Below, in pieces: positions 2,702 through 23,700 of a stretch of 64,000 nucleotides of DNA. Source of the DNA: a virus. A program made the translations under genes and the position numbers. The notes beneath the pieces are model-generated. The model worked only from the letters and a program-made list of their open reading frames with translations, did no database searches and was not told the origin of the DNA. Positions within the stretch are counted from its first letter, which is position 1. Each line of letters begins with the position of its first letter. The stretch covers positions 2,598-66,597 of IMG/VR virus record IMGVR_UViG_3300042869_001157. One strand, 5' to 3'.

Positions 2702-4741
2702 ATGGCTTGGAATATTTCTAATAAATCATTAAATGGCCAGAGTGGGAAGTCACTCATTGGTCCTGGCGCTCCAGTTTCGGCAAACCCAAGTTTTGTTGGG
2801 CGTGCCTATCGTGACCCCTGGGATATTGAGCGTGCTTATCGCGAAGGAATGCAGAAAGTCACATGGGTGGCACGCTGTATCGACGCCATTGCGGGTAACC
2901 AGGCTCGCCTCCCTGTCATTCTTCGTAAAGAAAATTCTCCAATCGGTCGCATCGTTCGTGGAGAAACCGCTTCTAAATCATCATTATTGACAATTTTGAA
3001 CACAAAATCCAATATTGGTGAAAATGCGTATATTTTTAGGTATCGCCTTTCTTCTCAAATTCTTCTTGGAACTCGCGGCGCTTTTATTGAGAAAGTTCGT
3101 GGTCGTGATGGCTCAATTATTGGCCTGAACCTCCTCCCCCCTCAATCAACGGCACCTATCCCTGATCCGATTAAGTTTGTTTCTGGATATGAAGTCTTGA
3201 TGCCAACTGGGGATAAAATCATCATGAATCCTGATGATGTTATTTGGGTTCGTCGTCCTCACCCGCTAGACCCATATTTGTCATTGACACCTATGGAATC
3301 TGCTGGCATTGCCATCGAAATTGAAAACTTAGCCAAACTATATAACCGCAACTACCTCCTTAATGATGGTCGTCCAGGTGGTTTATTGGTTTTGCGTGGT
3401 GAAATTGATGACGATGATAAAGATGAGTTAAGGAACCGTTTTAGAGGAAACTTGGGTCGTGTTGGCTCAACTTCTGTTATTTCGGCTGATGATGGCGTTG
3501 ATTATGTTGATACTTCGTCAAATCCGCGTGATGCTGCCTATATTCAGATGCGTCAGATCACTAAAGAGGAAATTCTTGCTTCGTTTGGTGTTCCTGAGTC
3601 GGTTATTGGTAATGCGTCTGGTCGAACGTTTAGTAACGCTGCCGAGGAAGTGAGCGTTTTCTGGAATGAGACTATGTCTCCTCACTTGGAGATTTTGGCA
3701 CGAGCACTTGATGACCTTGATGCCGAACATTATGTTGACTTTGATACTTCTGACGTTCCGTACTTGATTATCACTAAGCAGGAGCGCGAAAGATACCTGT
3801 TAGATGAGCAGAGTCGCGGTCTTATTAGCGTCAACGAATATCGTGAAGGAACCGGTCGTAAGAAAGTTGAATCAGAGTTGGCGGACAGTCTTCTCATGAA
3901 CCCCAATTTGACTCCAATCGCAAATACAACGAAACCCACCCCTCCTCCTGGTCAGGGCGGCGTGCCTATGGGTGGCGGTGCTCCTGGCGTTCCTGGGATG
4001 CCCCCTGGAATGCCTCCTGGCGCCCCCGGAATGCCTCCTGGCGCTGATGGGGCTCCTGCTCCAGATACTATGGCCGGAGCACTTATGGCAGAACAGGGTG
4101 GAATCCCTGGTGCACCTGCTGGTTTTCCTGGAATGGGGATGCCTGGTGGTGGGGTCCCTGGAGGGCCTGAAGGTGCGATGGGTCAAATGTCAGACACTCA
4201 GCCGTTGGCTTATAAGGATGAGGGCACGGAGCGAGATACGGCGATTGTGCGCTGGGAAGAAATTTTGGATCGAAGCCTTGAGCGGGTGCTTGAACGTCAG
4301 CAGCGTGTTGTTTTGGAGAAGGTCGGTGGCAAGAAGGCTAGGGATTTCTTGAGTTCTGGTTCTTTGGACTCTGAAAGTATATTGAATAGCGATACTTGGA
4401 CTAAGCAGATGGATGAGGATATTCGTCCTGTGCTTTCGGCTATTTTGAAAGACTCAAAGTCTATTTATGCAGAAAAGTCAGCGGATTATTCTGGTCCTTC
4501 GGCGTCAGATGTTCATGCACATCTTGATGCTCAGATGACTAGAATTAAGTCCATTAACGATGATACTCGCTCTCTTTTGGATATGGCTATCTTTAATTCG
4601 TTTGGAATCAAGAACGAAGAAGAACGATTGAGTGCCCTCAAAACATCTATTGTCAGCATTTATACTGATTTGTTGGTGAAGGTTCGTCCAGAGATTGCTT
4701 CGTCGGAGGCTCGCCGTGCCTGGGACTACTGTAGGCCATAG
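2702..4741 (+). CDS. Phage portal protein (HK97 family) with a Pro/Gly/Met-rich insert and C-terminal extension
   Basis: Motifs WVARCIDAIA, GTRGAFIE, LSLTPMESA, NDGRPGGLL, EEILASFGVP, FSNA and GLISVNEYRE are typical of HK97-family portals. Position between terL and the protease fits. Confidence 0.93.
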   Translation: MAWNISNKSLNGQSGKSLIGPGAPVSANPSFVGRAYRDPWDIERAYREGMQKVTWVARCIDAIAGNQARLPVILRKENSPIGRIVRGETASKSSLLTILNTKSNIGENAYIFRYRLSSQILLGTRGAFIEKVRGRDGSIIGLNLLPPQSTAPIPDPIKFVSGYEVLMPTGDKIIMNPDDVIWVRRPHPLDPYLSLTPMESAGIAIEIENLAKLYNRNYLLNDGRPGGLLVLRGEIDDDDKDELRNRFRGNLGRVGSTSVISADDGVDYVDTSSNPRDAAYIQMRQITKEEILASFGVPESVIGNASGRTFSNAAEEVSVFWNETMSPHLEILARALDDLDAEHYVDFDTSDVPYLIITKQERERYLLDEQSRGLISVNEYREGTGRKKVESELADSLLMNPNLTPIANTTKPTPPPGQGGVPMGGGAPGVPGMPPGMPPGAPGMPPGADGAPAPDTMAGALMAEQGGIPGAPAGFPGMGMPGGGVPGGPEGAMGQMSDTQPLAYKDEGTERDTAIVRWEEILDRSLERVLERQQRVVLEKVGGKKARDFLSSGSLDSESILNSDTWTKQMDEDIRPVLSAILKDSKSIYAEKSADYSGPSASDVHAHLDAQMTRIKSINDDTRSLLDMAIFNSFGIKNEEERLSALKTSIVSIYTDLLVKVRPEIASSEARRAWDYCRP

Positions 4742-4860: not shown

Positions 4861-7800
4861 ATGTCCAATTTCTCCACGTCAGACATACTTTTCAAAGCAC
4901 TCGATGGTCAAATCAATATTGACTCAGCGCAAGGAATTGTTGAATGTTTCGTAGCCGCCATCGGCAACAAGGACTCGGTAGGTGATGTCATCGTCAGCGG
5001 TGCGTTTACGGAAAGTCTCAAGCGTCGTAAGCCACGCGTAGTTTGGGGACACAACTGGAACGATCCCATCGGTAAGGTTCTAGAAATCTACGAAGTACCA
5101 GCGAACGACCCACGCATCCCCATGAAGATGAAGATGGCTGGCGTTGGTGGACTGTACTCTCGCGTTCAGTTCAACCTTGCAACCGAAAAGGGACGTGAAG
5201 CCTTCGCCAGTGTGGCGTTCTTTGGACAAGAACAAGAATGGTCAATTGGCTACAAGACACTCCAAGCAACATTTGACCCCACAATGCAAGCAAACGTTCT
5301 ACGTGAAGTTGAACTATATGAAGTCAGCCCTGTTCTTCACGGCGCAAACCAACTAACCGCAACACTTTCCGTCAAGAGCGATGATGGTGGAGAAAAGTGT
5401 GGACCTGAAGGAATGCACGGCGGGATGCACGGTGGAATGAACGCCAGCCGACCAGGATCAACCACTATCGATATCCCTCGCTTCAACCTTATTCCGGCAA
5501 AGCCACGATCATTCTCGACAGAGAACGAACGTACCGACATTTTTGCTCAAGGCGAATCTGGACAGTTGGGCGACGAGGCCCGCACAGCACTTGAAATGGA
5601 ATTATCATCACGTTCAGCAAGCCCACTCAGAGTAGTCAATGCAACCGAAAATAGTGTTGTATTTGATCGCACAATGCCAGATGGAACACGCATGACCTAT
5701 CGCATTGGGTACCATCGCGAGTCACAAAGCGGCAGATACATGTTCGGCAAGCCAGAGAAGATGGCTTCACAACAGATAGTTCCATCACAAATGCCTTCAA
5801 TGCCAATGTCGGTCAAGCCAGGATACGTAACTCGGTCCTACAGTGATGCGCAGCAGCCAATCGCAATGATGAAATCATTCGATGAGCAACTTGATCAGGC
5901 CGTTGAAATTCTCTCCAATGCCGGAGAAGATGAAACAATCAAAGAAAGCGAATTGCAAAAAATTCAAGACGCCATCGACTATCTACGCAATCTCGCCGAT
6001 GGACAGCAGAAAAAAACTGCTTTAGAATATTCGGTATGGTGTAAGCCACAATATGCATACAAAGTCAAGTCACTACTAGACCCCGTACTCAATTACCATC
6101 GCCTAGAAGCACACGTTGACGACTACGGTGTTCATGTAACTAGCGGGCTCAATGAAGATTCGCTACAGGCACTCAGATCAGCCCATAAAAATATTGCTTC
6201 CTACCTTGATGGTGGCGGTGGTTCAAAAAAAGGTGATGGGGCGCCTAACACCAAAGCCGCCCCCAAGACCAGAATAAAAGCCCTTAGTGGCAAAATTGGT
6301 CCTAAAATTGGTGGCGGTTTGCGTGCTGCTCCTGCAGGCATGGCATTCGTCGACATCACTGGCGTTACTGACGCCGACTCTGACGGCATTGTTTTTGAAG
6401 GTAAACCAGGCTTAGAACGACCAATTATTCCTCGCTTTATCGTACCTAAGAACCTTGCCAGAAAACTTTCAAGCATTGTCGAAGGCGATGCCGAATCAAT
6501 TGAGAAGCAGCGTCGTGCAGGTAATGGCAATGTTTCTTTTGATGAAAAGAAACTTCGCGGGATTATTGATGACATCGGTGGTGACCCCAATCTCTTGCAG
6601 AATATTTCTTCTGACGGCATGCGCTCGCGTGGCGAAATGCGACCCATTGGTTCTGACTTACCATTTGATCTACAAACTGGCAAACCACGCAAACGATTTG
6701 ATGAAACTGATGAGGAATTTGCAAAAAGAACTCGCCCACTTGCGTTTGATTTGAGGCAGACAAAACCTAGCAAGGCAAAGTATTCTATTACGAATTTCTC
6801 CAGTCGAAGCGGCATGCGCTCACGACGTGGTGAATCAAAAGAACGAAGAAAGGCTATTTCGGAAATCGATGACGCAATTTCATTTACCGAGTCATTGAAA
6901 CGTTCCGACGATGGTCCTGCTTTCTTTTTTTCTGATGGCATTGAGGCAGCAAGCGATTTTACCCGTGCTCTTGAATACAATAATCTGTTCAAGTATCTTG
7001 ATTATGAGTCAGATTCTGATTCCGATTCAGGATATCGCGTTAGTCTTGATTTGGAATCAATGGATGATTCTGAACTAAATGACCTTATTGATATTCTTAA
7101 TGATGGTCAAGAACCCGAAGACTATCTTGAAAAAATTCCAACTGATGATTCTCGTGGCATGCGTTCACGCTCGGGTGATCCGGAAATCGATTATCAACTT
7201 GACGAACAAGATGACCGTCAGTTCCGTGACAATCGTCTTGATGCACCGCGCAAGAAGCCCCAGAAGTCGATGCGAGAACTTCGTGAAGAGAATCGCCTGA
7301 AGCGTCAGCGTGAGGCAGAGAATGACCCCGAGTACATTCAGTATATGCTTGACGAGCAAGCAGACATGCAGCGCGATATGGAACGCGAAGAACGTGGCAT
7401 GCGTTCACGACGTGGTTCAACTTATAGAGAACGTGGTCCAAGTTATGAAGAGCAATTCGAGGACCTAGATCAAGATTCTGGTCATTTCAATAATTTACTT
7501 GAACGTACTGTCGAAACAATGATCGAAGATGACGAACTTGACCCGAAGGACGTTGATTGGTCAAACATTCTTGACAATGAAAAAGTAATGAGTCGTGCCG
7601 AAGAAATGTGGAATTCTGACGTTGAAGATCATTGGGCTGATGTTGGCGAACGACAGCGCGATGACCGTGGCATGCGTTCACGACGTGGCTATGTTGGTCC
7701 TCCTGATTCGTGGTATGAGCCAGATGACGATCCTTTGGAGCCACTAGAAGAACTAGTCGGTGAAGAGTGGAACAGGGGTGACTCGGATAGATATTACGAG

Positions 7801-10800
7801 ACTGCTCGCGATTGGACTAGAGAAAATGTAGACCAATACAAGGACATGACTGATGATGAATGGGATTCCCTTTTGGATGACGTCAATGCATCAGACGACC
7901 CTATTGCAGCAATGCATAAATTGTTTAAAGAATACGATAATTCCGACGCCTTCGATGATGATATTCGTCGTTTTGCCGAAAGTGATTTAAATAGTTTTGA
8001 TGAAGATTACGATGACCGTGGTTTCCGTTCACGTCTTGGCGACGCGGTACGTAAGCAAGGTCGCGAAATTGGCAAAGACCTCAAGAGAGAGGCTAAGAAA
8101 TTTGCTAGAGAAAAGGGTCGCGAACTCCTTGATGATGCTGTAGACAATATTTTTGATCGCAACAGAAGAGATCGCGGGATGCGTTCGCGTAGATTCAGGG
8201 AAGATAGCAAGCCAGACAAAAAATTAAAACCAGCGTACGGAAGAAGAGGGCCAGTTCAAGCACTTCAAAATATGAGTGACGAGGAACTTGTTAAACTTCT
8301 TCAATCGTATGGCGAAACGGCATGGCGTCCATGGGACAGGAATCCACAATCTTCTTCCCTCCTTTTGAGAGATCGCCCATCATTGAGTTCTTTGGTTCAA
8401 GAACTTGATTCACGTGGTTACGACGTATATCAAAGCGAGGGACGTGAGCCTGAATATTTCGGTGATTATTCCGCCGGAGATAAGAGCGTTTATGCACGCA
8501 AGCGCGGACAAGAGCCATCACCATTGGAAAGAATGCTCAATGGCGAAATGTCATGGGGAGTGGAGGAAGAAACAAAGCCGCAAGATGTCATTGACTCCCA
8601 ACTAGAAGATCGTCGTCGTAGCGAAAGCAAAACATGGAAAGCAACAGTCCCTGACGACTACAAGCCATCAGATGGTGCCCTAGAAACTCTGACACCTGCT
8701 GAAAGAAGACTTCTAGAGACTTTTAAGCCAAAATCTAAAGCACAACGCAAACAAGAAATGCTTGATTCTTTCCGCAATCAAGCAAAACGTGATGTCGACA
8801 GCAATAAACCTTACGATACTTGGGATTGGTACCCCACTTTCGAAGAGTGGGATCAGGAATACAAAAAGAAATTGCGCCAATACAGAAAAGCGCAAAGAAA
8901 AGCCTACGCCCACGATCTAGAAAAAGGCAATGTCAAGCCAGTAGAAGAGCGTGCTGTTCAGCAAACTGGCTGGTCAGTAGAAAATCTTGACTGGGATAAC
9001 TTTAAACCAAAGCCTCTTCGCTTTGGACCTTATGGCGGTCCTCGCGACGTACCGGAACTACTTCGTGGTTTCCGTTCAAAAATTACTGATGGTTTAAGAA
9101 ATGAACGCGATAACAGCGTTAAATCTACGACAACCATAGAACAACGAGCATTCGATATTCTTGCCCAAATGTCGCAGCGTAGCGGCCAGAAATTTGGTTT
9201 GAGCGATAAAGAACTGCAAGACATTTTTGATGGTGACCAAAAGATTAATCCCGAATTGATGAAAATTGTTCGTTCTGAACTAAAGCGTCAAGGGTTCACT
9301 AAAGATGATGTTGCAGATGTATTGAGTGGTCGCTATGCGGGGTATGCCCGAAATAAAATATCCGGAGCACCAGACGATGCTGATCGTGTATTTGAAGGAG
9401 AAATGGAATCTATTTCCAATCGTGCATTCCAGGAATCGATGGACATACTCAGCGATGGGTTGACCATTGAAGAATTCCAAGATTTTGTTTCTTCTGGCAG
9501 AATTCCTCAAGGCAAAGAAAGCATCTTGAGACGCGCCAATGAAGTGTATGACAACATTGTTCAAGATAGTGACAAGCAGCGCGCAATGGGCCTACGTTCT
9601 CGCACAGGACGCAATATTGATGCAGAAATCGACACCAATATCAAGAAGCAACGCGATCTTGAAAAAGAACTCGATGATGAAAAAATTGATTTAGCAGAAT
9701 TCCGTCGCCGTCAAGCACCATTACGCCAAGAGTTTTCTGACCTACGTAAAGAGCAAGGCGCTCAATCAGCAACTAGAAAAGCGCCAGAGTTAGATGCCAC
9801 TGGTCGTCCACGTCGTGAAATGATTGAACGTGACGAAAAAGGAAAAGTCAAATTTGATTCAGAAAAATTCTTAGCAGAACAGAATAGTAAGCGTCGTTCT
9901 ACGATGTCGGAACTTGGTTTCACTGAAGAAGAGATAAATGCTTTGATGGGTGCATCTTCTTCTGGCATGCGTTCACGAGGCAGATCGAACGAAAGTTTCA
10001 AGAATGCTCGCGCTCTGTACTCATCTAAAAACAAAGAAAAAATTGCCGACAGATTGACAGAACTTACGCAACGTCGAAATGAACTTAATGCCAAATCAAA
10101 AGAATTATTGGATCAATATTATGCCAATGGGCGAGATTTTAATGATGAAGAAAATGACATTTATGATGAAATTGAAAATGAATTAGACGACGTCAATGAC
10201 GAAATTAGAGGAATTTCTGATTGGGCAAAATATGCGACAAGTGAAGACACTCAAAGATGGGTTGGTCGAACTGGTATTAGAAAAACCCGTATGGCTTATA
10301 GAAAAATGCTTGACGACGGTGAAATTAGTCAAGGAAAATACGACAGACTCCTTGAGGACCTTATCGACCCTACATTTTTTGATGATGAACATTGGGACAG
10401 CGTAGGCGCCATCCCGTTCATATCATATCTTCGCGATGTTTTTGAAGATGATGATGACATCTTCGTAGATGTAGATAACCAATTATTGACATCTGAAAAA
10501 ATTGATGATTTGTCATCTGATTTTGCTGCAGAAAAAGTTGCAGAAGGCCTTGCTAACTTAAACAACAGAGGAATGCGTTCGCGTTCCGGAAAAAAGAATA
10601 ATTCCGAAAAACGCAAAATGGTCACGAAGTTGACTCCAGATCAAGTTCGTATTATGCAAGAACAAAAACTTCGTTCAAAGAAAATTCCTGGCAAGAAAAA
10701 AGATGGCCCGTCCAAGAATGAGTGGGGTTTCCGTTCACGCGAAGACTTTGGCAATTCTGCTGGCGCAGCAATCAACTATTTGAGCGAAATTTTCTCTAAA

Positions 10801-13800
10801 GACAACAATGATTTGTCTTCTAACGAAAAATATTTGCGTCGCCACCTCTTGGATAACGGAATCAAAATTGATTTCTATCGCGGAGGTCGCGAAGGCTCTA
10901 TCGGTTCAGATATCTCCTTGCGAGATAACGATAGAGCAGGCATGGACGACAAACTAGATGCTTTATTGAACACAATATCTAAAGATAAAAAAGCATCAGA
11001 TATCTTGTCTGATAACGGATTCTTAATGGATGATCGTATTTGGGAAACTATGCCCTCATACAAGAATCGCCCAAACCGAAAAGGACCCAAATTAGGTGAC
11101 AGAGAACGTGGTGTTCAGGCGCGAGCAAACATTACAGATTTAGCACCTGGTGATGTTCTCCCCGAAAATTGGGATGATGAAACTAGTGCTGTTGGTGGGC
11201 CAATGGTTCGTATTGCCGATATTCGTAGTGATGGTCAAGAAGATGGCTACGTCACGATGGTGTTAGAGAACATGTCTGATGGTACTACTGAAACACGCAC
11301 ATTTGGTACGAATGACACATTCCCGAACGTAAGCAGACCGTCTGGTTCTCGTGGTGGACGTCAGCAAGGAATGCGATCCAGAGGTGGCGGGCAATACTGG
11401 ACCGACGGCGCACACAGGATTTGGATTTCCGATGATGAAGAACAAAATAGTGACGTCGGAGTCGATGCCATGCGAGATGGTTTCCGACCAGAGGGTGGCT
11501 CGGGTAGCGGTAGAGACTACTACCCATCTCGTCGCCGAAGATACCCCACGAGTACCCCCAAGCAAACAGCACCAAAACCAGATGATGGAGATCAATTAAT
11601 AAGCGATGCTTCGTCTATTACTGGAAATGACCTTGCTGCGTCCATTGTTCAACAATATAAACAACGTGGCCGACTTACGGACAAACAATGGAATGCACTA
11701 CGTGGCATAGTTTCTAAAAACAAAAAACCATCAGCCGGTCCATCTGCAAAAGAAGGAGTAGATAAGGCTGAAGATATTGCGCCTTCACTTTCCAATGAAG
11801 ATAAGAAGGCAATCATTGAGGCTGCTCGTGGTTTAAGTGGTGATTTTGCGAAAAGTGTTGTTTCTCAATATAATTCTCGTGGCCGTTTAAGTGACAAGCA
11901 GTGGGCTGCACTAGATAAGGCTACCCGCAAAATACGTGGTACCTCTACTAGTGCTGGCATGCGTTCACGGGCAAATACTGGATCAATTAACTGGGATGAA
12001 CCCGACGAAAACTGGGGAGATGGTGCGGGCGGGGATGTAGAAACATGGACGTTGCCAGATGGTGGCTATTATCAAATCTCCCGTTGGGAAGGCGGCGGGA
12101 ATAACCCTGGCGGTTCAGTCGCTACAGTATATGACGCCAACAATAAACAAGTTGCACGAAGTGAAGAATTTGGTTGGTATTCAGACGACGCAAAGAAGTT
12201 CTTGCAGGATTATCACAAAGAAAATACACCTACAGAAGGTGGCATGCGTTCACGTCGTTCTTACGATGACGAAAGTGGTTCGCGTGGGGTCCGCGAAGGA
12301 GTCGCAGAATCTGAACATTTTGAAGGCTCCATGTGGATTGATCAACTCAAGGGCGACAATGTTGATGCCGATGTTATTCCATTAGCGGATATTTATGGTG
12401 ACGACAGGCCTGGATATGGCGTGGTCGGCGTTTATAGAACTGACGATGGATTCGGTGGGATTGAGTATTTCTATGGCGGAGACGATGAAGAGTTCGATTC
12501 TGTTGAAGACGCCATGGACTTCTTGCAAAATGTCGAAGACCAGGGTAATGAGGACATTCTGTATGGTGATCCGGAATTCCGTAGTCTTGACCGTGTTCGT
12601 GCTGCAGGAAAGCCTGGCAGACGTCCCCTAGAAGGATTGCGTTCACGTTCTGGTGGAACGTCAGCAAATGTAGAAGCAGACCGAAGAGATGCTGCCGACA
12701 ATTCCGTATCCAACCCAATATCGCCTAATCGCCTTAATGAACTTTCGGGTAGCGATGATGTTGAAACTAGAATAAATGTTGCAAACAATGATGGAGCATT
12801 CTTAGAAACAGTTAATAGATTGCTTGAAGATGACGATCTTGACGTTCGTAAGGCTGCAGATGAGAATATTCAACGACGCTTTGGCGCTATAGCAAACCAG
12901 CCTGGTTCGGATCGACGTAAGCCTGCCTCGCGTCAAAGACGAGAAGCCGCGAAAAACTATTTGGCTCAGCATGAAGAGCGAATGCAGAAAGCCGGCATGC
13001 GTTCCCGCACTATGCGCGAACAAGACCCAAGAGCATACGATGACGTTTATGAATTGATCGATCAAGGTTTGTCTGATCAGGAAATTTATGATTCGCTTGC
13101 TTCTTCGCGGATATCGGGCGCGCGAGAAATAACATTATCTAAAATTGGTCAAATCCGTTCTGGTGGCAGGGAATTAACTCAGGACTCAAATAAGCGCGGA
13201 TTTGTAAGAAAAAAGAATACGCGTAAAATCAATGACCGATTTGATGGACAGCAAGTGGCTCGTTTGAGTGCTTCGCGTGGTGGCCGTTACGGTGAGCGTG
13301 CGGATATCGAAGAAGGCCTCAGTGATGTGCAAGAAATTGCTGACGGCATGCGAAGCAAAGCCGGAACAGGGTTGGGCGAATCACGCGAAATCTATCCTTC
13401 ACGCAGAATGGCCGAAAGTAGTGCTGTTGACTTCGTTCGTTACGATGCCGCTAAAGAAGAGTTGGTCGTCCAATATAAGGGCGGCGGCGCTTACGTATTT
13501 GGTGGTATTTCTGCTGATGACGCAGACAGCATTGAAGAAGCAGAGAGTCTTGGTAAAGCACTCAATGATGTGAAGCGCAATGCGACATATTCCGTTAAGC
13601 CGAATGGTGATGTTAATGGTGTTGAGTCAACGACTGCTGATTTCTTGGAACGTGATTTGCGTCGTGTCCCACTAAGCGAAGACAACAGGTCCGTATACGG
13701 TAACGCTATTCGGTTACTTCGTGATGGGGTTGATGAAGATAGCGACTTTGCACAGGTTCAGTCTCAGGTTACAAACATAAGCAACCTTGCAAATGAGATG

Positions 13801-15837
13801 TGGGAAAATGATGAGTATGCCGCATCTAATTTCTTGTCAGATGCAGCAGAGAAAATCAATAAGAAACTTAATTCCGTTAGAGGTCAGGGCGGTTTCCGTT
13901 CACGCGCCGGAGCAAGACATCAACGCATGGAAGTCAATCTTTCCGTAGATGAAATTGGTTTAATTCGTGATGAAATTCGTGGGATTACCGCGAAGCATGG
14001 CGGAAATGGCCTAATTACTTACGGTATGAAGAAGTACGATAATCTTCTTGAAGAGTTACAGAATCAGAAAAAATCTAATCCTGGTCGTTCTTTGATAGTT
14101 CTTTCCTCGGAATACGACAACGTTATGACGGCGTACGATGAATTGGAGAAAGTTGATCCATCATGGATCAAGATGTTTGGTGCCGATCCACTAGAAATGG
14201 CCTCAGTCAGCAAAGAAGGAAAGTACATCAGCCCCAATGTTGATATGCCTGGCGAGGAATTCGATGGCAAGCGCATCAATAACGGTGCTCCAGCAGATAT
14301 CACTCCAAGAATGCAGGGTCAACTTGTTGACTGGGGTCGTCGTCAGCCTAACTTCCGCATAGTTAAGGGTCTCATTGAGGCTCATAAGAAGAATAACGGC
14401 ACCATGACGGCGCGTCAGTGGAGTACTTTGCGCAACATGTTTGACCGCTTCTCTGAAGAGAACCGTAGTGGTGGAGTTAGATCACGAGTTGGTTCTGGTA
14501 TGCGTTCAGAAACTGGCAGCGCCGTGTCTAGTTCTCGTACAGGAAAGGGCAAGGGTCCTCGCTCGGCTAAAGATGTTCTTCCTGAAAACTATGAAACTTT
14601 GTCATTGGATGAGAAGTTTGATGCATTAATTTCTGCAGGTAAATACGATGAGTCGACTAATCCTAACGGTATCCAGGTTGGTGAATATAACGCTGCGTTT
14701 AGACGTTTGCGTGATGCTGAAGATGAGCAGGACAGAATTACTGCTCGTCGTGAGGCCCTTGCTGAAAGAATGAAGCGTTCGGCGGAGGCCGGTCCGGTAA
14801 CGCGTCGTCCGGAAGTTATGGAGCAAGAGTCACCTCGTCGGGCGAATGATGTTGAGACGACTCCTGAGAAGCGGGCGGCATTGGCGAAGAGGACTCGCCA
14901 GAAGCAAATGTCGGCTATTGAAAAAGTCGTTGCTAAGGCGCAGGACAGTATTAGTGGTGCAATTATTGATGGTGATGCTGAAGATGAGCATGGCAACGTC
15001 TGGAATGAAGTGATGGATTTGGTTCAGGCTGAGGATGGCGGCGATGACGCTGACTTGACTCTTTCTAAATTGAGTTCGATCATTGAGGCACTTGATGATT
15101 ACACTATTGGTTTTGAGGGCGAGGAAATGAGCCCAGCGGAACGCAAGAGTGTCAATAACGCTACTAAACTCAAGAACACCCTTGAGGAATTGTATGACGA
15201 TATAGATTCTGATCCGTTCATCAAGCGTGGAAGCACTTCCCGTGAACAAACAGGGATAACTCTCGCTGGAGAGGAAGATGATTCAATTCCACGATTTATG
15301 ACTGGAGAAGGTTTACGTTCTCGTTCTAGCCTAGTCAATGGTTATATAGGTGCTCGTAAGAATGCCGAACGTCAACCCAGAGCGGGCATGCGTTCACGTT
15401 CTGGAACTGAACAAGATGGTCGCGCTGAAATTCGCTGGGAAGCAACTGAGTTCAATAAGGTAGAACAGTCGTTGAGTAGGGAAATTTCTGAAGCACAAAA
15501 GTCTGGAGATTCCAAGACTGCTAATGCACTCAGGAATTTGACGAAGATTATGGATAGGCAGAAGTCTGGCGATGTTGGTGGAAAGAGGACTAACGCTGGT
15601 GCTTTGTATCTTACTCAGAATGAACTTGATGATGTGATGGATGCTTTGATGCATGTTGTTGATCGTCAAACTCAAACGGATGGTTCCAGAACCAATATGT
15701 TCGCCCAAATGCTTGACAAACTGGCCGAAGCGGGCATGACAACATTTATCAGAAAAACAGCAAAACCGGTTAATTCTCGATTTGTAGAAAAAACAAACGA
15801 GTCCGGCAGAACTGTAAAGATTCCGCTCAATGAATAA
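4861..15837 (+). CDS. Giant fusion: HK97-family prohead protease, scaffold-like region and about 23 GMRSR-delimited cargo modules including a KTSC domain
   Basis: N-terminal GNKDSVGDVI, WGHNW (His), WSIGY (Ser) and LYEVSPV match the S78 prohead protease. RBS AGGAG precedes the start. A KTSC-like SSAVDFVRYDAAKEELVVQYKGGGAYVF lies at about 13414-13580. Confidence 0.88.
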   Translation: MSNFSTSDILFKALDGQINIDSAQGIVECFVAAIGNKDSVGDVIVSGAFTESLKRRKPRVVWGHNWNDPIGKVLEIYEVPANDPRIPMKMKMAGVGGLYSRVQFNLATEKGREAFASVAFFGQEQEWSIGYKTLQATFDPTMQANVLREVELYEVSPVLHGANQLTATLSVKSDDGGEKCGPEGMHGGMHGGMNASRPGSTTIDIPRFNLIPAKPRSFSTENERTDIFAQGESGQLGDEARTALEMELSSRSASPLRVVNATENSVVFDRTMPDGTRMTYRIGYHRESQSGRYMFGKPEKMASQQIVPSQMPSMPMSVKPGYVTRSYSDAQQPIAMMKSFDEQLDQAVEILSNAGEDETIKESELQKIQDAIDYLRNLADGQQKKTALEYSVWCKPQYAYKVKSLLDPVLNYHRLEAHVDDYGVHVTSGLNEDSLQALRSAHKNIASYLDGGGGSKKGDGAPNTKAAPKTRIKALSGKIGPKIGGGLRAAPAGMAFVDITGVTDADSDGIVFEGKPGLERPIIPRFIVPKNLARKLSSIVEGDAESIEKQRRAGNGNVSFDEKKLRGIIDDIGGDPNLLQNISSDGMRSRGEMRPIGSDLPFDLQTGKPRKRFDETDEEFAKRTRPLAFDLRQTKPSKAKYSITNFSSRSGMRSRRGESKERRKAISEIDDAISFTESLKRSDDGPAFFFSDGIEAASDFTRALEYNNLFKYLDYESDSDSDSGYRVSLDLESMDDSELNDLIDILNDGQEPEDYLEKIPTDDSRGMRSRSGDPEIDYQLDEQDDRQFRDNRLDAPRKKPQKSMRELREENRLKRQREAENDPEYIQYMLDEQADMQRDMEREERGMRSRRGSTYRERGPSYEEQFEDLDQDSGHFNNLLERTVETMIEDDELDPKDVDWSNILDNEKVMSRAEEMWNSDVEDHWADVGERQRDDRGMRSRRGYVGPPDSWYEPDDDPLEPLEELVGEEWNRGDSDRYYETARDWTRENVDQYKDMTDDEWDSLLDDVNASDDPIAAMHKLFKEYDNSDAFDDDIRRFAESDLNSFDEDYDDRGFRSRLGDAVRKQGREIGKDLKREAKKFAREKGRELLDDAVDNIFDRNRRDRGMRSRRFREDSKPDKKLKPAYGRRGPVQALQNMSDEELVKLLQSYGETAWRPWDRNPQSSSLLLRDRPSLSSLVQELDSRGYDVYQSEGREPEYFGDYSAGDKSVYARKRGQEPSPLERMLNGEMSWGVEEETKPQDVIDSQLEDRRRSESKTWKATVPDDYKPSDGALETLTPAERRLLETFKPKSKAQRKQEMLDSFRNQAKRDVDSNKPYDTWDWYPTFEEWDQEYKKKLRQYRKAQRKAYAHDLEKGNVKPVEERAVQQTGWSVENLDWDNFKPKPLRFGPYGGPRDVPELLRGFRSKITDGLRNERDNSVKSTTTIEQRAFDILAQMSQRSGQKFGLSDKELQDIFDGDQKINPELMKIVRSELKRQGFTKDDVADVLSGRYAGYARNKISGAPDDADRVFEGEMESISNRAFQESMDILSDGLTIEEFQDFVSSGRIPQGKESILRRANEVYDNIVQDSDKQRAMGLRSRTGRNIDAEIDTNIKKQRDLEKELDDEKIDLAEFRRRQAPLRQEFSDLRKEQGAQSATRKAPELDATGRPRREMIERDEKGKVKFDSEKFLAEQNSKRRSTMSELGFTEEEINALMGASSSGMRSRGRSNESFKNARALYSSKNKEKIADRLTELTQRRNELNAKSKELLDQYYANGRDFNDEENDIYDEIENELDDVNDEIRGISDWAKYATSEDTQRWVGRTGIRKTRMAYRKMLDDGEISQGKYDRLLEDLIDPTFFDDEHWDSVGAIPFISYLRDVFEDDDDIFVDVDNQLLTSEKIDDLSSDFAAEKVAEGLANLNNRGMRSRSGKKNNSEKRKMVTKLTPDQVRIMQEQKLRSKKIPGKKKDGPSKNEWGFRSREDFGNSAGAAINYLSEIFSKDNNDLSSNEKYLRRHLLDNGIKIDFYRGGREGSIGSDISLRDNDRAGMDDKLDALLNTISKDKKASDILSDNGFLMDDRIWETMPSYKNRPNRKGPKLGDRERGVQARANITDLAPGDVLPENWDDETSAVGGPMVRIADIRSDGQEDGYVTMVLENMSDGTTETRTFGTNDTFPNVSRPSGSRGGRQQGMRSRGGGQYWTDGAHRIWISDDEEQNSDVGVDAMRDGFRPEGGSGSGRDYYPSRRRRYPTSTPKQTAPKPDDGDQLISDASSITGNDLAASIVQQYKQRGRLTDKQWNALRGIVSKNKKPSAGPSAKEGVDKAEDIAPSLSNEDKKAIIEAARGLSGDFAKSVVSQYNSRGRLSDKQWAALDKATRKIRGTSTSAGMRSRANTGSINWDEPDENWGDGAGGDVETWTLPDGGYYQISRWEGGGNNPGGSVATVYDANNKQVARSEEFGWYSDDAKKFLQDYHKENTPTEGGMRSRRSYDDESGSRGVREGVAESEHFEGSMWIDQLKGDNVDADVIPLADIYGDDRPGYGVVGVYRTDDGFGGIEYFYGGDDEEFDSVEDAMDFLQNVEDQGNEDILYGDPEFRSLDRVRAAGKPGRRPLEGLRSRSGGTSANVEADRRDAADNSVSNPISPNRLNELSGSDDVETRINVANNDGAFLETVNRLLEDDDLDVRKAADENIQRRFGAIANQPGSDRRKPASRQRREAAKNYLAQHEERMQKAGMRSRTMREQDPRAYDDVYELIDQGLSDQEIYDSLASSRISGAREITLSKIGQIRSGGRELTQDSNKRGFVRKKNTRKINDRFDGQQVARLSASRGGRYGERADIEEGLSDVQEIADGMRSKAGTGLGESREIYPSRRMAESSAVDFVRYDAAKEELVVQYKGGGAYVFGGISADDADSIEEAESLGKALNDVKRNATYSVKPNGDVNGVESTTADFLERDLRRVPLSEDNRSVYGNAIRLLRDGVDEDSDFAQVQSQVTNISNLANEMWENDEYAASNFLSDAAEKINKKLNSVRGQGGFRSRAGARHQRMEVNLSVDEIGLIRDEIRGITAKHGGNGLITYGMKKYDNLLEELQNQKKSNPGRSLIVLSSEYDNVMTAYDELEKVDPSWIKMFGADPLEMASVSKEGKYISPNVDMPGEEFDGKRINNGAPADITPRMQGQLVDWGRRQPNFRIVKGLIEAHKKNNGTMTARQWSTLRNMFDRFSEENRSGGVRSRVGSGMRSETGSAVSSSRTGKGKGPRSAKDVLPENYETLSLDEKFDALISAGKYDESTNPNGIQVGEYNAAFRRLRDAEDEQDRITARREALAERMKRSAEAGPVTRRPEVMEQESPRRANDVETTPEKRAALAKRTRQKQMSAIEKVVAKAQDSISGAIIDGDAEDEHGNVWNEVMDLVQAEDGGDDADLTLSKLSSIIEALDDYTIGFEGEEMSPAERKSVNNATKLKNTLEELYDDIDSDPFIKRGSTSREQTGITLAGEEDDSIPRFMTGEGLRSRSSLVNGYIGARKNAERQPRAGMRSRSGTEQDGRAEIRWEATEFNKVEQSLSREISEAQKSGDSKTANALRNLTKIMDRQKSGDVGGKRTNAGALYLTQNELDDVMDALMHVVDRQTQTDGSRTNMFAQMLDKLAEAGMTTFIRKTAKPVNSRFVEKTNESGRTVKIPLNE

Positions 15838-17798: not shown

Positions 17799-20700
17799 TT
17801 GGAGCCCGGTATGACGGGTAGAGGTATCCCTCAACGGAATAAACTTTCGCCACGTTTGAACGTGCCTGTCCGCAATTATGACGGAAAGGCTATGTACTTC
17901 CGTGAACGACAGAAGTTCTCATTAACTCAACCATACTTGGATGCAGATATTGCGGTCAAAGTTTTGGCCGAGGGCATGGTTGCTACCGGTTCTGGTGGGG
18001 ACAGGGAGATGACTGGTGATGACGATCAGCCGGCTATGGCTGAGTTTCGTTTCGATCCCCTGGCTCGCCGTCAACCTGGGCAAGTACTAAAACTTCACAC
18101 TACCTATAAAGAAGCGACGACCCCTGGTGATGATCATAACTGGGGCTGGGTTGATCCTGAGCCCGAATTGTCTGATGAGGATCGTCTCCAGTTATCCGAG
18201 GAGGCTGCTGATTTTGTTAGTAAGCGTCCCCAGGTTATTGTTCGTCAATTTCTTGTTGATAAAGATGGGAACGAGACTGGTGAAACTAACGAAATTGCGG
18301 TAAAGCAGTTGGGTCCCACCATAAATGACATGATGCCTGGACAAGCAATCAAATTACGTAAGGCTATTGCTAAGGGTATTGTTATTGATGCCAACGGACA
18401 AATGCGTTGTCCTCCCGGCACTCCTAACGCCAACCAATTCACCGATGTCGATATGTCTAATTGTTTCAATATTGGTGTTGGTGCTGTTCAAAAAGAGATT
18501 CGTCGTATCCGTGGTTTTTGGAAAGAGTGGAACGAAGATGTAGCAGCGATTCGCTCTGCTCGGACTGCTAAAGAAAGACTTGGTAAGGCTAAAGAGAACT
18601 ATACGAGCCTTGAACAGAATGCTGAATGGCTTGCCCGTAATGAACAATCTATTCAGGATGCTTATGAGACTTTGGGGATTGATTTATCTCAGTTTACGCC
18701 AGAGCAGTTAAAAAACAATGTTCATCTCTTTACTGCCATGGATGAATTGTTCAAAAATCATGATGGTCCTGAGTTTAGAAGATTTTTGCATGATGCCATT
18801 GGTTTCAAATGGGATGACTCTAAGAGTGTTGATGAAAATATGAAAGATTACTGGGAGACATTACGTGAGACGGCTTACAAGTTGGTTCCAGAGGAAGTTA
18901 AAAAAGCGTTATTGATTGACCCGTCAACAAAGAAGCCCATTTATCCCGATCAGTACGATGAAGCGCAAAAAATCGTTGACATGATGATTGATCGATTTAG
19001 GGAAGTTCAAGAAGGCATCATCCATGGTGCTTTGGTGTCTTTTAATGATAATCCTCAAATGTTTCAAACTTTGCGCGAAATTGGTTTTGATGCTTGGAAT
19101 GGAAGAGTTGGCCTAAATGAATGGATGAGTTATGAGGGCATCACTAATCCTATTACTGATGAACTAAGCCCTGGTAGACTTGGCACTCAAATAAATTTCA
19201 ATACCTGGGCGCTTGCATTTAAGCCTTTGATTGATTTGAGAAAACTGGAAGGAGAAGGTAGGTTTGAAATTGATCTCAAGCCCGTGGATGCCCAAGGCAC
19301 ACCTTTGAGCGATATTGAAAAATTAAAACAAATACGCGACATTATCGCCCATTCTAATGAAGTTGATCATTTTATTCATGGTGTTGGTTATGCGAACGAA
19401 CAGTCATCTGCTCGTGCATCCGCAGTGGCTGGTATGTCTCCCGCAAAAGCCAAGGCAATGCACGTTATGTTTCATGAGTTTGGGCATGTTTTACAATATG
19501 CCGAAGCACAAAATGCGATTATCGATTATGTGAACAAGCATGGTCAACTTGTTGTTACTAATAACGGCGCACTCAATGTTCTTACTGGTGATTGGCGAAC
19601 ATGGTCCAATAATGATTGGTACGATGCATTGAATACTGTCATGAGAGGAACTTTTGAAGGGATGAATTATCCGCCAGTTACCGTTGACTGGTTAGAGGAT
19701 TCAATGCTTCACCTTCTTGCTGGACAGTATTATCAAGATGAATTAGGAAAATGGCAGCGAATGCACCTTAGTGGGGGTGAAGGCTCCCCGATGTTAAAAA
19801 ATGCCCAGGTTGGTTTGATGATTCAGGAGGCTCGCGCTGAGTTGTATGCGTTGAGGCAGATGGGCGTTATTTCTGGGCCAGATATCGACAAGGCTATTGG
19901 TGGTATGGATGAGGTGAGAAGGCCTCCCGGTATTGAATTGGCTTCGCGTCCTATTTATGATGCCCCTACGGAGAATATTTCTAGACTTGTTCCGAAAAGT
20001 ATTTTTTCAGATAAAAGAGATTTACGAAGAAAACCCGAATACCCCCCCGAAGTTACTAAACTTGTCAAGAAAATGAAAAAGGAAAATTATACTCCTGAAC
20101 AAATATTGAATGAGTTAAATGCTGGTGATCCTGAAAATCCTAAGTTTACTTTGGATGATGTTAATAACATGATCGGCGATACAGGGGCAGATGACGTTCC
20201 TTCGGATTGGAAGTCCCCCGAAAGAGAAAATGGTATTCCTAAATTTGATCCTGCAAATGGTATTTATGCTGACTGGTCACCCGATCCAAATGATGATGGG
20301 AAAACGCGTCAAGCAAAATTAAATCAAGCCATAGAAGATTATGCATATTCTGATGAATTTTTGCAAGATATGGAAGATGCTGGTTTTGATCAGACCGACG
20401 AAAATCATATGGGTGATTTTGTTGGAACAAAAAAATATAAAGAAGGTTTAAAAAAATATCAAGAAAAATATGGCAAACCTTCATCCGATAGCGGCAATAA
20501 AACAAACGAAGAAGGAACCTCCATTCCTGATGAGACACTTCCAGAACCTAAGAAAAAACGTGACATTCCGGCATGGGATGGACAAGTGGACCCGTTTGCA
20601 AACGATTATTCAGAAGTAAAGTTAACGGATGCTTTAATTGACGATTACACTAATACAGACTACACAATTGATGAACTCGCAGAACGCTATGACCGTACGC

Positions 20701-23700
20701 CGGAAGAAGTCAAAGCCAAAATTGATTTGGAACAAAAACTAAATGGTCCCATACGATCAGCCGACTACTATGCTGCTCTCAAGAGGGGCGAATGGGTTAA
20801 TTATAGAAATCCGAACGAAGACGACAAGTATTCAGATGACAGTAGGGGTTACAGAAAATACAAGGATGGAATATATCCAAGTGAACGGGAGTATGAGATA
20901 CGAAAGGAGGGTGGCAAGACTCAAGTTCGCCTAAGGCAAATTCCCTCTTCGGAAGACACTGCACCAGTTACTCCTGCTTCCAACCCTAAGGAGTGGGGAC
21001 GTCAGAGAAGACAAGAAATATTAAATACAACAGAACCAGAAACCGTTGCTTTATTAGATGGGTCTATTCCTCCCGATAAACGCACATCGACGTCATCTTT
21101 GTCGCCACGCAATATTGATACAACACTCAGAAACTCAATGAATGCTCGTAGTAAAGCAAAAGAAGAAGCAAATACCATTGCAGCGCCCACGCCAGACGCT
21201 GAGTCACCTTTGCTTGATGAGGAAATTAGAGATGCGGTAGCCCCAATGTTGTTCCACATTGACTCACATGAATTTGATGAAGATATGTCGGTATTGATGG
21301 TTATTGATTTGCCAGAAAATTATGAAATTGGCGGAGGAGATTTTGTTAATTTCGAAATGCCAATGCGTGGAGTTTTGCCAGGCCGTCTTCAGCCAAAGTC
21401 TTCGGGAAATAAGAGAGCGGTTCGCGTGATGTTTCCTGCCGGAAGTCGTGGAGTTATTGTTGGTAACTCTTACAATGGCGATAGCGATGGTGTACTCTTG
21501 CCTCCCGGCAGAGTTTCTTTAATTGATGTTGATGAGAACGGCGTTATTAATGCAATAATTGCTTCTCAGGAAAATCCATTAGAGACATTGAAACGTATGG
21601 ATGGAAACATTGATGATGTTTCTTCTGCTGAAGGTGCTGACGATTTTATTAGGGGCGAAGCATCGATTGTTAAAGCAGAAATTGGTAGACAGATTGATAA
21701 GTATGCGAATAGTGAGCGTGGTCGGGGTATGCGTTCACGTTCGCGTGGCAGCAGCAATGATGCTTTGACTCGAAGAGATCAAAAGCAACGAAATGATTCT
21801 ATTTCTAGCATTATGCGTAGGAAAAATAGTGCCCCATTTAATGTTGATAATAATTTTTCTGCTCGTCACAGAAACCCTGATGGGACGGCGTTGTCTACCC
21901 AGTGGGGCGACGTGGTCCCACGTGAAGTTCATGTAGATAGACGCAACAATCGTGTTACTGCCTCAATTGGGCGTATGAGAAATATTTTGAATGGTGATGT
22001 CGCTCCTTCTAGTGAGAGCGAATTCGATTTTATTAACAATATTGATCCTCGTGTCAAAAATTTGTTGAATAATCGATCTCCAGAAGAAATTCGTCAACTC
22101 ATTGATGATGCCTATGTGGATTTCCATAAGGGTTTTGATGATCGGGTACGCATTCCGATGAATGATAACACGTTGAATGGAATGATGTCTGAGGGCCGCC
22201 TGAAGGCGATTCAAGAAATTAAACCGAATAGTCCTATTTCTAAACTTAAATCAGACCATGAACTGTTTTTGGGTTACGATCCGGAAGTTTCTAATAACAT
22301 GCGATCAATTTCTGGATATATGGTTCATCGTAATGCTAAAAATGTTATTTCTGATCACCTTGATTCAATACCAAGCGACGGCATCAATAGAAACCCAGAT
22401 TTCTTTCATGAAAGTGGCGACATTCAACCGATGGGTGATGTACGCATTGGTGGAAATGACATTGATCTAGTGTTAAAACCAGAAGTTGCTTCTCGTTCAG
22501 CATATTCGCGTGGTGAAGCAATTCGTTCACACAACTACCCGACTCCAGTTTTGTTTGACAATCCCGGGGATGTCGGATCGGCTCACTTAAACGAGTCAAT
22601 CACTTCAGGTAATTCCGACGCTGACAGAATGCGCAATATTACTAATGCTCTACAAAATGTTATTGACAATAACTTCAGTGGTTCACTTTCTGATGACATT
22701 TCAGCAAGTAGATCAGAACGTGCACTCAGGCCAGGAAATAAATATGAAGCACTTGTTGCCGGTGGAGTGAGTTTGGATGACGTTGCTGAAATACGTTACC
22801 CAGTAAATAAACTTGACATAAATAATGAAAAGTTAGATATGAATTCCTCGATAGGCGACAGCGGGCGAGAACTATTGAAAGTTAATGGTTTTGGTGACGG
22901 GGAGATTGACGAATATTTACGTATGGTTGATGACGGCGAAGTCGAACTTCAATCTGCCCGCTGGCTAAAACAACATCGTGCCGCTAAGAAGTTTGAAACA
23001 GATTTTAGAAAGAAAAACAATTTTGATGGTCGTATTGTTTTTACTAACTCTGATGGTATAGACCTTTTGTCTCCTGAAACTTTTAGGGAACATCCAAATT
23101 CGCGTGGTCTTCAGACTGTTGAGCAAATGTTGTCGGCAAGAATGCTTGCCGATATGGCACCGAATATGAAGAAAACTTTGAAGGCTATTAAGAAGTCTCC
23201 TGATGCTCAGGCTCGTATTCGTTCTGCACAAATTGGTCAAAACAAAAAACCGAATGTTGATGTTCCGAATGCTGGTTCGCGTATAAATAGTATTGAAGAT
23301 AATGAAGTCGATGATATTTTTAATTCCTTAACTGATGATTTAAGAAACATTGCTCAGGGTGTCGATGTGGAGGATCGCGGAATGCGTTCACGTTCCGTCC
23401 CAGAAAATTTACCCCCTGAAACGTTCTCCTATGGAGACCCAGAGAACGCTGACGTTCCTGGCAAAAAAGCGTTCCGTGACAATTCAATTTATGTGACCAG
23501 AAATGATGACGGAACATTTAACGCTTACACGATTGAAAACTATCCTGGCACTGAACTTGGCTATTTGAGACAGGTCGGAAATAATAATCACGAGAGTCTT
23601 GCTGCAGCAAAAAATGCCGCTAACGGTCGAAGTAAACTTTCCTCAAGTGGTCGCGGGATGCGCTCCATTACTGGTAGTAACGATTCCAATGCTGCACGAG

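Follow-up and report, generated by a model that had tools for sequence, protein, structure and literature searches.

The DNA examined here, which we call the window, is a 64,000-nucleotide (nt) stretch of virus sequence (positions 2,598 to 66,597 of IMG/VR record IMGVR_UViG_3300042869_001157). It contains a giant open reading frame (ORF) in which a prohead protease is continued in frame by a very long "cargo" polyprotein. This arrangement raises the question of whether the protease is made only as part of the fusion or whether the junction carries a signal that also releases a short protease form. An earlier note, made from the letters of the sequence, had read the junction as a programmed −1 ribosomal frameshift. 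That reading is now supported by an in-register slippery heptamer in all 74 contigs found to span the junction, by the hairpins that follow the heptamer, and by a clade in which the shift is obligatory. We consider it highly probable that a programmed −1 frameshift of the dnaX type yields a protease form of 458 amino acids (aa) alongside the 412-kDa fusion.

The elements that the earlier note had placed around the junction were recovered in the window where it had put them (Table 1). The heptamer A_AAA_AAA proved correct to the base and in register; the 6-nt spacer and the GGGGCG/CGCCCC stem were as described, and two further inner pairs (CU/AG, 6245–6246 with 6255–6256) were found in the stem; a Shine–Dalgarno (SD)-like sequence is present upstream; the −1 frame reads AGG TGA; and the first GMRSR motif of the cargo part is at residue 586. 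The predicted −1 product, put at about 458 aa in that note, has 458 aa and 50.5 kDa and ends in ...GGGGSKKR. In-register slippery heptamers number 6 in all among the 3658 codons of the giant ORF, and the 64-kb window contains 20 A/T runs of 7 or more. A further A7 run (6010–6016), located 215 nt upstream in the giant ORF, reads AAA AAA A and is outside the X_XXY_YYZ register. Folds as good as that at the junction occur in only 0.8% of 365 50-nt segments of the giant ORF, and when the 15 codons concerned were recoded synonymously, just 7 of 1000 variants were equally stable. Rfam includes a dnaX model, and a cmscan search of positions 6100–6400 against all 4227 Rfam families (E values up to 10) gave no real match; two chance-level matches (E 6.3 and 6.5) were to unrelated long non-coding RNA models. 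The window by itself makes only a moderate case for a frameshift signal, and the excess over chance was decided by the relatives.

Relatives were collected by two protein-guided scans of IMG/VR viral contigs, which returned 106 distinct contigs (7 of them found by both scans). Ten did not reach the junction, 22 were related in the protease domain only, and 74 showed homology across the junction. Every one of these 74, which represent 38 distinct 82-nt junction sequences, carries an in-register slippery heptamer at codon 425–507 of the protease ORF, namely G_GGA_AAA in 49 contigs and A_AAA_AAA in 25. The 22 protease-only contigs, L052 and L054 among them, have a different architecture, and 21 of them lack such a heptamer; the A_AAA_AAG of the remaining one, L130, was taken as chance. 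The predicted short product has 430–482 aa in 26 of 27 aligned sequences (the window and 26 loci), the exception being L055 with 526 aa. In L109, positions 3772–3781 read G_GGA_AAA_AAA, so that the heptamers G_GGA_AAA and A_AAA_AAA overlap. An exact-pattern scan of viral contigs for the junction type of L009 found no new members among its 19 hits, which comprised 8 known contigs, 7 from an unrelated phage group and 4 chance matches. In L064, L066, L070, L073–L075 and L080, which are an unrelated group of viral contigs, a gene end reading ...FGGGSKK-stop on the same 18 nt was rejected as coincidence: a T-run and an intergenic region are found there, with no open −1 frame after the stop.

Codon-level comparison indicates that the heptamer is constrained at the nucleotide level beyond the needs of the protein. 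Among the 16 sequences with G_GGA_AAA, 164 alignment columns hold an invariant residue and only 8 of these an invariant codon, none of the 8 being among the 20 Gly or the 13 Lys columns, so synonymous sites are saturated. All 15 sequences aligned at the heptamer nevertheless keep its GGA and AAA, with the caveat that one other Gly column has GGA in 15 of 16 and one Lys column AAA in 15 of 16. The sixteenth sequence, L008, was misplaced by MAFFT at the junction and, read directly, has CTG GGA AAA. The codon that precedes G_GGA_AAA may be CTG, CCG, TCG, TTG, GGG or TGG, coding for Leu, Pro, Ser, Gly or Trp with an invariable final G, and the codon that precedes A_AAA_AAA may be TCA, CTA, CAA or GGA, coding for Ser, Leu, Gln or Gly with an invariable final A. 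The peptide at the site differs between clades, being S-K-K or G-K, and slipperiness is retained in both.

The 74 contigs have two layouts around this heptamer. Sixty of them are arranged like the window, with a zero frame that stays open over hundreds to thousands of codons and a −1 frame that ends within 1–12 codons. In the other 14 (L009–16, L083–87 and L088), the zero frame ends 0 or 4 codons past A_AAA_AAA, and a homologue of the cargo (...KALGGK.G.RIGGGLRAAPPGMSFVD.TG...) is open in the −1 frame for >560 to >1121 codons, up to the end of the locus. The A-run consists of 7 A's in both layouts, which means that a miscounted homopolymer does not account for the difference in frame. A maximum-likelihood tree built on the short product places the 14 contigs with cargo in the −1 frame (the −1-cargo contigs) in a single clade (99/99) that is sister (86/83) to the clade of the window, so that one topology switch, followed by long retention, suffices. 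In L083–87, the first possible start codon (ATG, GTG or TTG) of the −1 frame comes only at codon +36 and is the Met within the conserved module PPGMSFVDITG. The conserved residues before that Met can thus be reached only by ribosomes coming from the protease frame; judged by its start codons, this group is one in which the frameshift is obligatory for the conserved cargo sequence. A collection of 5.8 billion proteins contains at least 26 clusters of 456–486 aa that are 54–59% identical to the short form of the window over 98–100% of its length. Their C-termini are ...GGSKK, GGLKK, GGQKK, NYPKK or FSSKK, or lie a few residues (SKK plus 1–4) beyond, and this many clusters ending at the site indicates that the layout with a zero-frame stop is widespread.

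A hairpin starts 4–8 nt past the heptamer in 17 of the 18 in-frame lineage representatives, with arm sequences that are unrelated between clades: GGGGCG/CGCCCC, a 13-bp stem in L008, CCGCGCC/GGCGCGG, GCAGCC/GGCUGC, GGUGGC/GCCACC, GGCCCU/GGGCCG and GCGCGGC/GCCGCGC. Fifteen of the in-frame, hairpin-bearing representatives were tested against their own loci, and in each the hairpin ranks in the most stable 0–2.8% of 45-nt segments. Compared with 1000 synonymous recodings, it beats 96.1–99.8% of them in 16 of 18 representatives (L034, 90.6%; L055, 87.9%), a control that answers the caveat of a GC-rich region coding for Ala, Gly and Arg. Paired changes were also seen, from U-A to C-G at the inner pair in L006, a member of the window's clade, and from A-U to G-C in L037; in the L009 clade there are two G-U/A-U changes, both one-sided. 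Hairpins of the in-frame lineages (n = 18) are stronger than those of the −1-cargo lineages (n = 4; Mann–Whitney p = 0.001), but because the latter are one clade this difference represents one evolutionary event and not four, and is a lead only. The earlier note had named synonymous disruption of the site in relatives as an outcome that would speak against a signal. The opposite was found, with the heptamer present in 74 of 74 contigs and the hairpin either kept or replaced at equal spacing.

A number of observations weigh against the frameshift reading. A −1 stop lies within one codon at 22% of ORF positions and within 12 codons at 78%; such stops are frequent by chance, and the closeness of the −1 stop to the heptamer is thus uninformative. 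The fold in the window has a z of only −1.5 relative to dinucleotide shuffles, 15 of 200 of which equal it, and the G+C content is locally raised (0.60 versus 0.46 for the window, and 0.58–0.67 versus 0.41–0.51 in the in-frame hairpin-bearing representatives). The covariation seen within clades is sparse and by itself not significant, as shuffles equal it 80 and 122 times in 500 trials each. L055–57 carry a run of ten A's (A10) and no notable hairpin. Structure in the −1-cargo clade is weak or absent (−7.5 to −11.8 kcal/mol), and recodings as stable as the natural sequence numbered 536 of 1000 for L083 and 261 of 1000 for L009. In E. coli, A_AAA_AAA is much less shift-prone than A_AAA_AAG according to a review (PMC5009743). 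The register of the slip site relative to the motif KAL..GGGL also differs by clade group. In the window's own, the L008, the L089 and the −1-cargo clades, the site is followed by a linker of 13–16 residues and then by the KAL..GGGL module, while in the L018-like and L102-like clades the heptamer is located at GGG.GK of apparently that same motif. Position-for-position homology of the sites is therefore not certain, although a separate origin of some of them would argue for selection rather than against it. Finally, a GTG or TTG occurs 2 codons past the slip codon in L009–16 and L088.

This last point also belongs to the view that nothing is recoded here, that the Gly-rich stretch (...GG(S/L)KK or GGxGK) and the hairpin are kept for a protein linker or for mRNA pausing or folding, that only the 3658-aa protein is made from the giant ORF, and that the −1 cargo is a gene of its own with GTG or TTG as its start codon. 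The hairpin arms do code for Ala/Gly/Arg-rich peptides that are prone to pairing, the SD-like motif can be read as plain Gly-Gly codons, and in a distant clade L052 and L054 encode the protease and an acidic scaffold-like protein as separate genes, the latter with a normal SD and ATG of its own. However, the GTG or TTG of L009–16 and L088 belongs to the 5′ arm of the hairpin and lacks an SD closer than 15 nt, which leaves separate initiation of the cargo in these contigs possible but unsupported, and L083–87 have no start codon at all ahead of the conserved cargo sequence. Nor would a protein linker account for a preceding codon whose last base is fixed though its amino acid varies, for a GGA and AAA that are fixed amid saturated synonymous sites, or for slipperiness that is common to clades with S-K-K and clades with G-K at the site. 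We regard the absence of recoding as unlikely. A different doubt, that the frame-differing contigs are assembly or sequencing artefacts or recent pseudogenes and that the heptamer of the window arose by chance, draws on the error-proneness of homopolymers and on the abundance of A/T runs noted above. It is scarcely credible in view of the contigs themselves: the 14 come from as many separate IMG/VR records, include at least 6 distinct junction sequences and all show the same frame relation; they form a diversified clade with inner branches of 0.14–0.22 substitutions per site; the A-run has the same length in both topologies; and at least 26 independent protein clusters terminate at the same place.

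If the shift is real, it could still be due to the polymerase, which would add an A within the A7 run so that the edited mRNA encodes the short form here and the fusion in the −1-cargo clade. The A7 or A8 runs of the window's clade and of the entire −1-cargo clade, the A10 run of L055–57 and the downstream structure of L083, which is no better than recoded controls as expected without ribosomal stimulation, all suit such transcriptional slippage. On the other hand, 49 of the 74 contigs have only four A's (G_GGA_AAA), too few to support polymerase slippage, and yet have the site at the same place and with a hairpin, and the hairpin of the window is under selection, as seen in the recodings, whereas polymerase slippage does not need it. 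Bacterial transcriptional slippage is described for runs of 9 A or T, which are longer than the A7 run here (PMC5009743). Logan contigs of two RNA-type libraries (X22, for which RNA is a guess, and X24) span positions 6225–6231 without an insertion or deletion at 90–95% likeness, though contigs drop minority forms. Slippage by the polymerase could play a part at the A7, A8 and A10 runs; as the general explanation it seems to us very unlikely, and we infer that ribosomes rather than RNA polymerase slip.

The part played by the sequence upstream of the heptamer is a separate matter. GGNGG is found 0–9 nt upstream of the heptamer in 21 of 22 lineage representatives; it encodes Gly-Gly with third codon bases that vary, and it pairs imperfectly with the anti-SD. 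A stimulatory role of the SD-like GGTGG is thus inseparable from its coding for Gly-Gly.

We propose that ribosomal frameshifting at the junction proceeds as follows. Two Lys-tRNAs would occupy AAA AAA (6226–6231) while the hairpin, with its base 6 nt downstream, would resist unwinding at the mRNA entrance. Some ribosomes would then move back by one base, pair anew with A_AAA_AA, decode AGG and terminate at UGA, releasing the 50.5-kDa protein that comprises the S78 protease and the conserved part of about 290 aa. Ribosomes that do not slip would open the hairpin and produce the 3658-aa, 412-kDa fusion. In most lineages, that of the window included, the long form would be the zero-frame product and the short form would result from slipping; in one clade, with its zero-frame stop shortly past the heptamer, it is the long form that would depend on slipping. 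Such frameshifting would probably serve to keep the free protease form and the protease–cargo fusion at a set molar ratio in head assembly. Since the protease and the 290-aa part are common to both forms and the polyprotein is present in the long form only, the frameshift would set the ratio of free to tethered enzyme, that is, the number of free protease molecules relative to those tethered to a 362-kDa load.

A broader proposal, which we advance tentatively and hold to be possible rather than probable, is that an uncultured freshwater phage family meters the loading of a giant, protease-processed polyprotein into the head by a shift like those of Gag-Pol and dnaX. The two topologies would be tuned oppositely, a strong hairpin going with a truncating slip and a weak or absent hairpin with a fusing slip. 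In both, the free 50-kDa form would be the major product and the 0.13–0.4-MDa fusion the minor one, which would bring the cargo in via its protease/targeting part.

The two parts of the giant ORF can be described further. Residues ~1–170 are, by profile match, an HK97-family prohead protease (MEROPS S78): the domain scores 50.4 bits with Pfam PF04586 (cut-off 21) and 59.2 bits with TIGR01543, barely over the threshold of 59, and matches phrog_80 with an E value of 1e-28. Residues 170–457 are conserved among the relatives and match no named family. An AlphaFold2 (AF2) model of the short product, built on 27 sequences, has a mean predicted local distance difference test score (pLDDT) of 56.5 with blocks of 76–85. 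It predicts folded pieces at ~238–300 and 390–449, the last helix being at 432–449, and directly after this helix a disordered Gly-rich tail (452–457) that coincides with the slip site. A Foldseek search of the model against the PDB gave no match at E ≤0.001; the T4 gp21 protease appeared in its list only at rank 15, with an E value of 0.38.

"Cargo" is only a label for the downstream part, and the gene order equally fits a giant scaffold or a core polyprotein. Rich in D, R, E and S, its 3201 residues have an isoelectric point of 5.0. The motif G[MLFV]RS[RKE], mostly GMRSR, occurs 23 times in this part (6616–15400) and is absent before residue 586. It is also found in other giant ORFs, with 4 copies in that at 17799–25970, 9 in that at 31755–39308 and 3 in that at 39710–46555, and not in the portal, 631-aa, 926-aa and 902-aa ORFs. 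It looks like a common processing site, perhaps of the prohead protease. The ORF at 17799–25970 (2723 aa) further matches phrog_192 (DNA polymerase exonuclease subunit) over residues 2125–2371, with an E value of 4.5e-24. The first downstream module, of the pattern ..GGGLR.AP.GM.FVD.TGVTDAD.DGIVFEGKPGLERPIIPRF.. (6310–6546), contains a DxDxDG loop, which we take to resemble calcium-binding sites. A copy of this module, with 77% identity in nucleotides, is present at 32448–32684, some 230 residues from the start of the 2517-aa ORF at 31755–39308, and no slippery heptamer precedes the copy in that ORF. The presence of the first module and of the GMRSR motif in other giant ORFs suggests that these ORFs form a set of head-internal polyproteins processed by the prohead protease. 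Across clades the long part varies from ~730 to 3200 aa, with the first module and the last ~20 residues retained. The long product of the window ends in ...AEAGMTTFIRKTAKPV (region 15700–15834) and that of L102–112 in ...SAAMSTFIDKT.KP, and the pattern A[AG]M[ST]TF[IV][DR]K[TS].KP is common to the window and L102, L108, L109 and L111, whose ORFs have only 1159–1257 codons. With both ends kept at such different ORF lengths, the middle of the long product appears to be expandable.

Table 1. Features of the protease/cargo junction and of its surroundings in the window.
Feature	Position	Strand	Basis or details
Portal gene	2702–4741	+	PF04860
Giant ORF, 3658 aa, 412 kDa: prohead protease, conserved ~290-aa part and 3201-aa acidic "cargo" polyprotein	4861–15837	+	
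HK97-family (S78) prohead serine protease domain, residues 23–168	4927–5364	+	profile matches
Conserved non-protease part of the short product	5365–6224	+	alignment of relatives, AF2 model
SD-like GGTGGCGGTGG, doubling as Gly-Gly-Gly-Gly codons	6211–6221	+	
Slippery heptamer A_AAA_AAA, read TC_A AAA AAA GGT, X_XXY_YYZ register	6225–6231	+	sequence
−1 frame codons AGG (6231–6233) and TGA (6234–6236): one Arg, then stop	6231–6236	+	
6-nt spacer GGTGAT	6232–6237	+	
Hairpin with 8-nt loop	6238–6263	+	stem GGGGCG 6238–6243 / CGCCCC 6258–6263; minimum free energy −17.1 kcal/mol
First conserved downstream module, KALSGKIGPKIGGGLRAAPAGMAFVDITGVTDADSDGIVFEGKPGLERPIIP...	6277–6546	+	alignment of relatives
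First of 23 G[MLFV]RS[RKE] motifs, residue 586	6616–6630	+	motif scan
631-aa ORF, next after the giant ORF		+	usual capsid-gene position

The source is a 66.6-kb IMG/VR virus record with a completeness estimate of 44%, and lake-water metagenomes contain DNA near-identical to the window. The giant ORF lies between the portal gene and the 631-aa ORF, which had no family match in Pfam, PHROG and TIGRFAM-type profile searches. On the minus strand, positions 3–2423 encode a terminase large subunit (Terminase_6N/6C) with a LAGLIDADG/Hom_end homing-endonuclease region at residues ~300–361, which looks like an intein or an inserted endonuclease. When 50,697 GenBank phage records were searched by tblastn, the protease domain alone was matched, at ≤42% identity over 26–30% of the query, and no cultured relative carrying the junction was found among these records.

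If the frameshift reading is true, the site decides the amount of the 412-kDa polyprotein relative to the enzyme that presumably cuts it. The presence of both topologies in one family would provide a natural experiment on the co-evolution of signal strength and gene layout, for which dnaX has so far been the main case. Gene callers treat these loci inconsistently, with 456–486-aa proteins ending in ...SKK next to giant ORFs that are left unannotated, and the head proteomes of an abundant group of lake phages would be uninterpretable without the recoding event. Programmed frameshifting in tailed phages is textbook knowledge for tail chaperones and capsid decoration; to our knowledge, frameshifting at the prohead protease is not. 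A full-text literature search on recoding at the protease and on the cargo motif, covering main texts and some of these in part, gave no report of a frameshift at a prohead-protease junction, its matches being tail chaperones, capsid immunoglobulin domains and internal starts, and the words "prohead" and "scaffold" have 0 occurrences in the examined portion of the review (PMC5009743).

Several known systems resemble the one proposed here. As in E. coli dnaX tau/gamma, the long product is in frame, an A-rich heptamer is followed by a hairpin about 6 nt downstream and by a stop one codon after the shift, the short form shares the N-terminus, and some lineages are reversed, with a zero-frame stop right after the site (PMC5009743). 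The dnaX shift reaches 50% with the stop one codon later and has the reversed topology in a few bacteria, and at efficiencies close to 50% one change can be enough to reverse which of the two products depends on shifting (PMC5009743). Unlike dnaX, the gene considered here encodes a phage head protease and not a clamp-loader subunit, its heptamer is A_AAA_AAA or G_GGA_AAA instead of A_AAA_AAG, it has no Rfam match, and an SD stimulator is not demonstrable. The tail chaperone gene G/GT of phage lambda slips on G_GGA_AAG. This heptamer is listed as highly shift-prone in E. coli, and in lambda and its counterparts among tailed phages, too, a −1 slip in a morphogenesis gene sets the molar ratio of a short to a C-terminally extended protein (PMC5009743). 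The topology of the −1-cargo clade is exactly that of lambda G/GT, but the gene is a head and not a tail gene, the extension has 730 to 3200 aa against ~140, and in the window the slip truncates. In Gag/Gag-Pol of retroviruses and totiviruses, a −1 slip fuses an assembly protein to a large polyprotein that is later cut by the viral protease, and the minority fusion is co-assembled into the shell. The −1-cargo clade follows this logic; in contrast to these eukaryotic RNA and retroviruses, the upstream part is itself the protease, and in the window the fusion is the zero-frame product.

The carboxysome protein CsoS2 occurs as CsoS2A and CsoS2B, the short form being truncated by frameshifting. 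It likewise is a shell-assembly protein with full and −1-shift forms, a 3′ stem-loop and no clear 5′ SD (PMC5009743). It differs in belonging to a bacterial microcompartment rather than a virus, in having no protease domain and in being unrelated in sequence. Phage lambda C/Nu3 and herpesvirus UL26/UL26.5 are nested protease/scaffold pairs. In the same way, I/Z of Mu and Mu-like phages obtains a protease-bearing form and a second form at a set ratio from one head gene (PMC4378225). Such nested pairs use an internal in-frame start and have a common C-terminus, whereas here the N-terminus is common and the forms are split by frameshifting. Phage A2 and T7 gene 10 have −1 frameshifts in their capsid proteins. 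In MSTV1-like viruses a −1 slip likewise takes place in a head gene, and some relatives encode the extension in frame (PMC11375127). Those three add a small decoration domain to the major capsid protein and have no protease-to-polyprotein junction. The mechanism proposed for the window is thus of a known kind, and what is new is its context in a head gene, that of the prohead protease, together with its dual topology.

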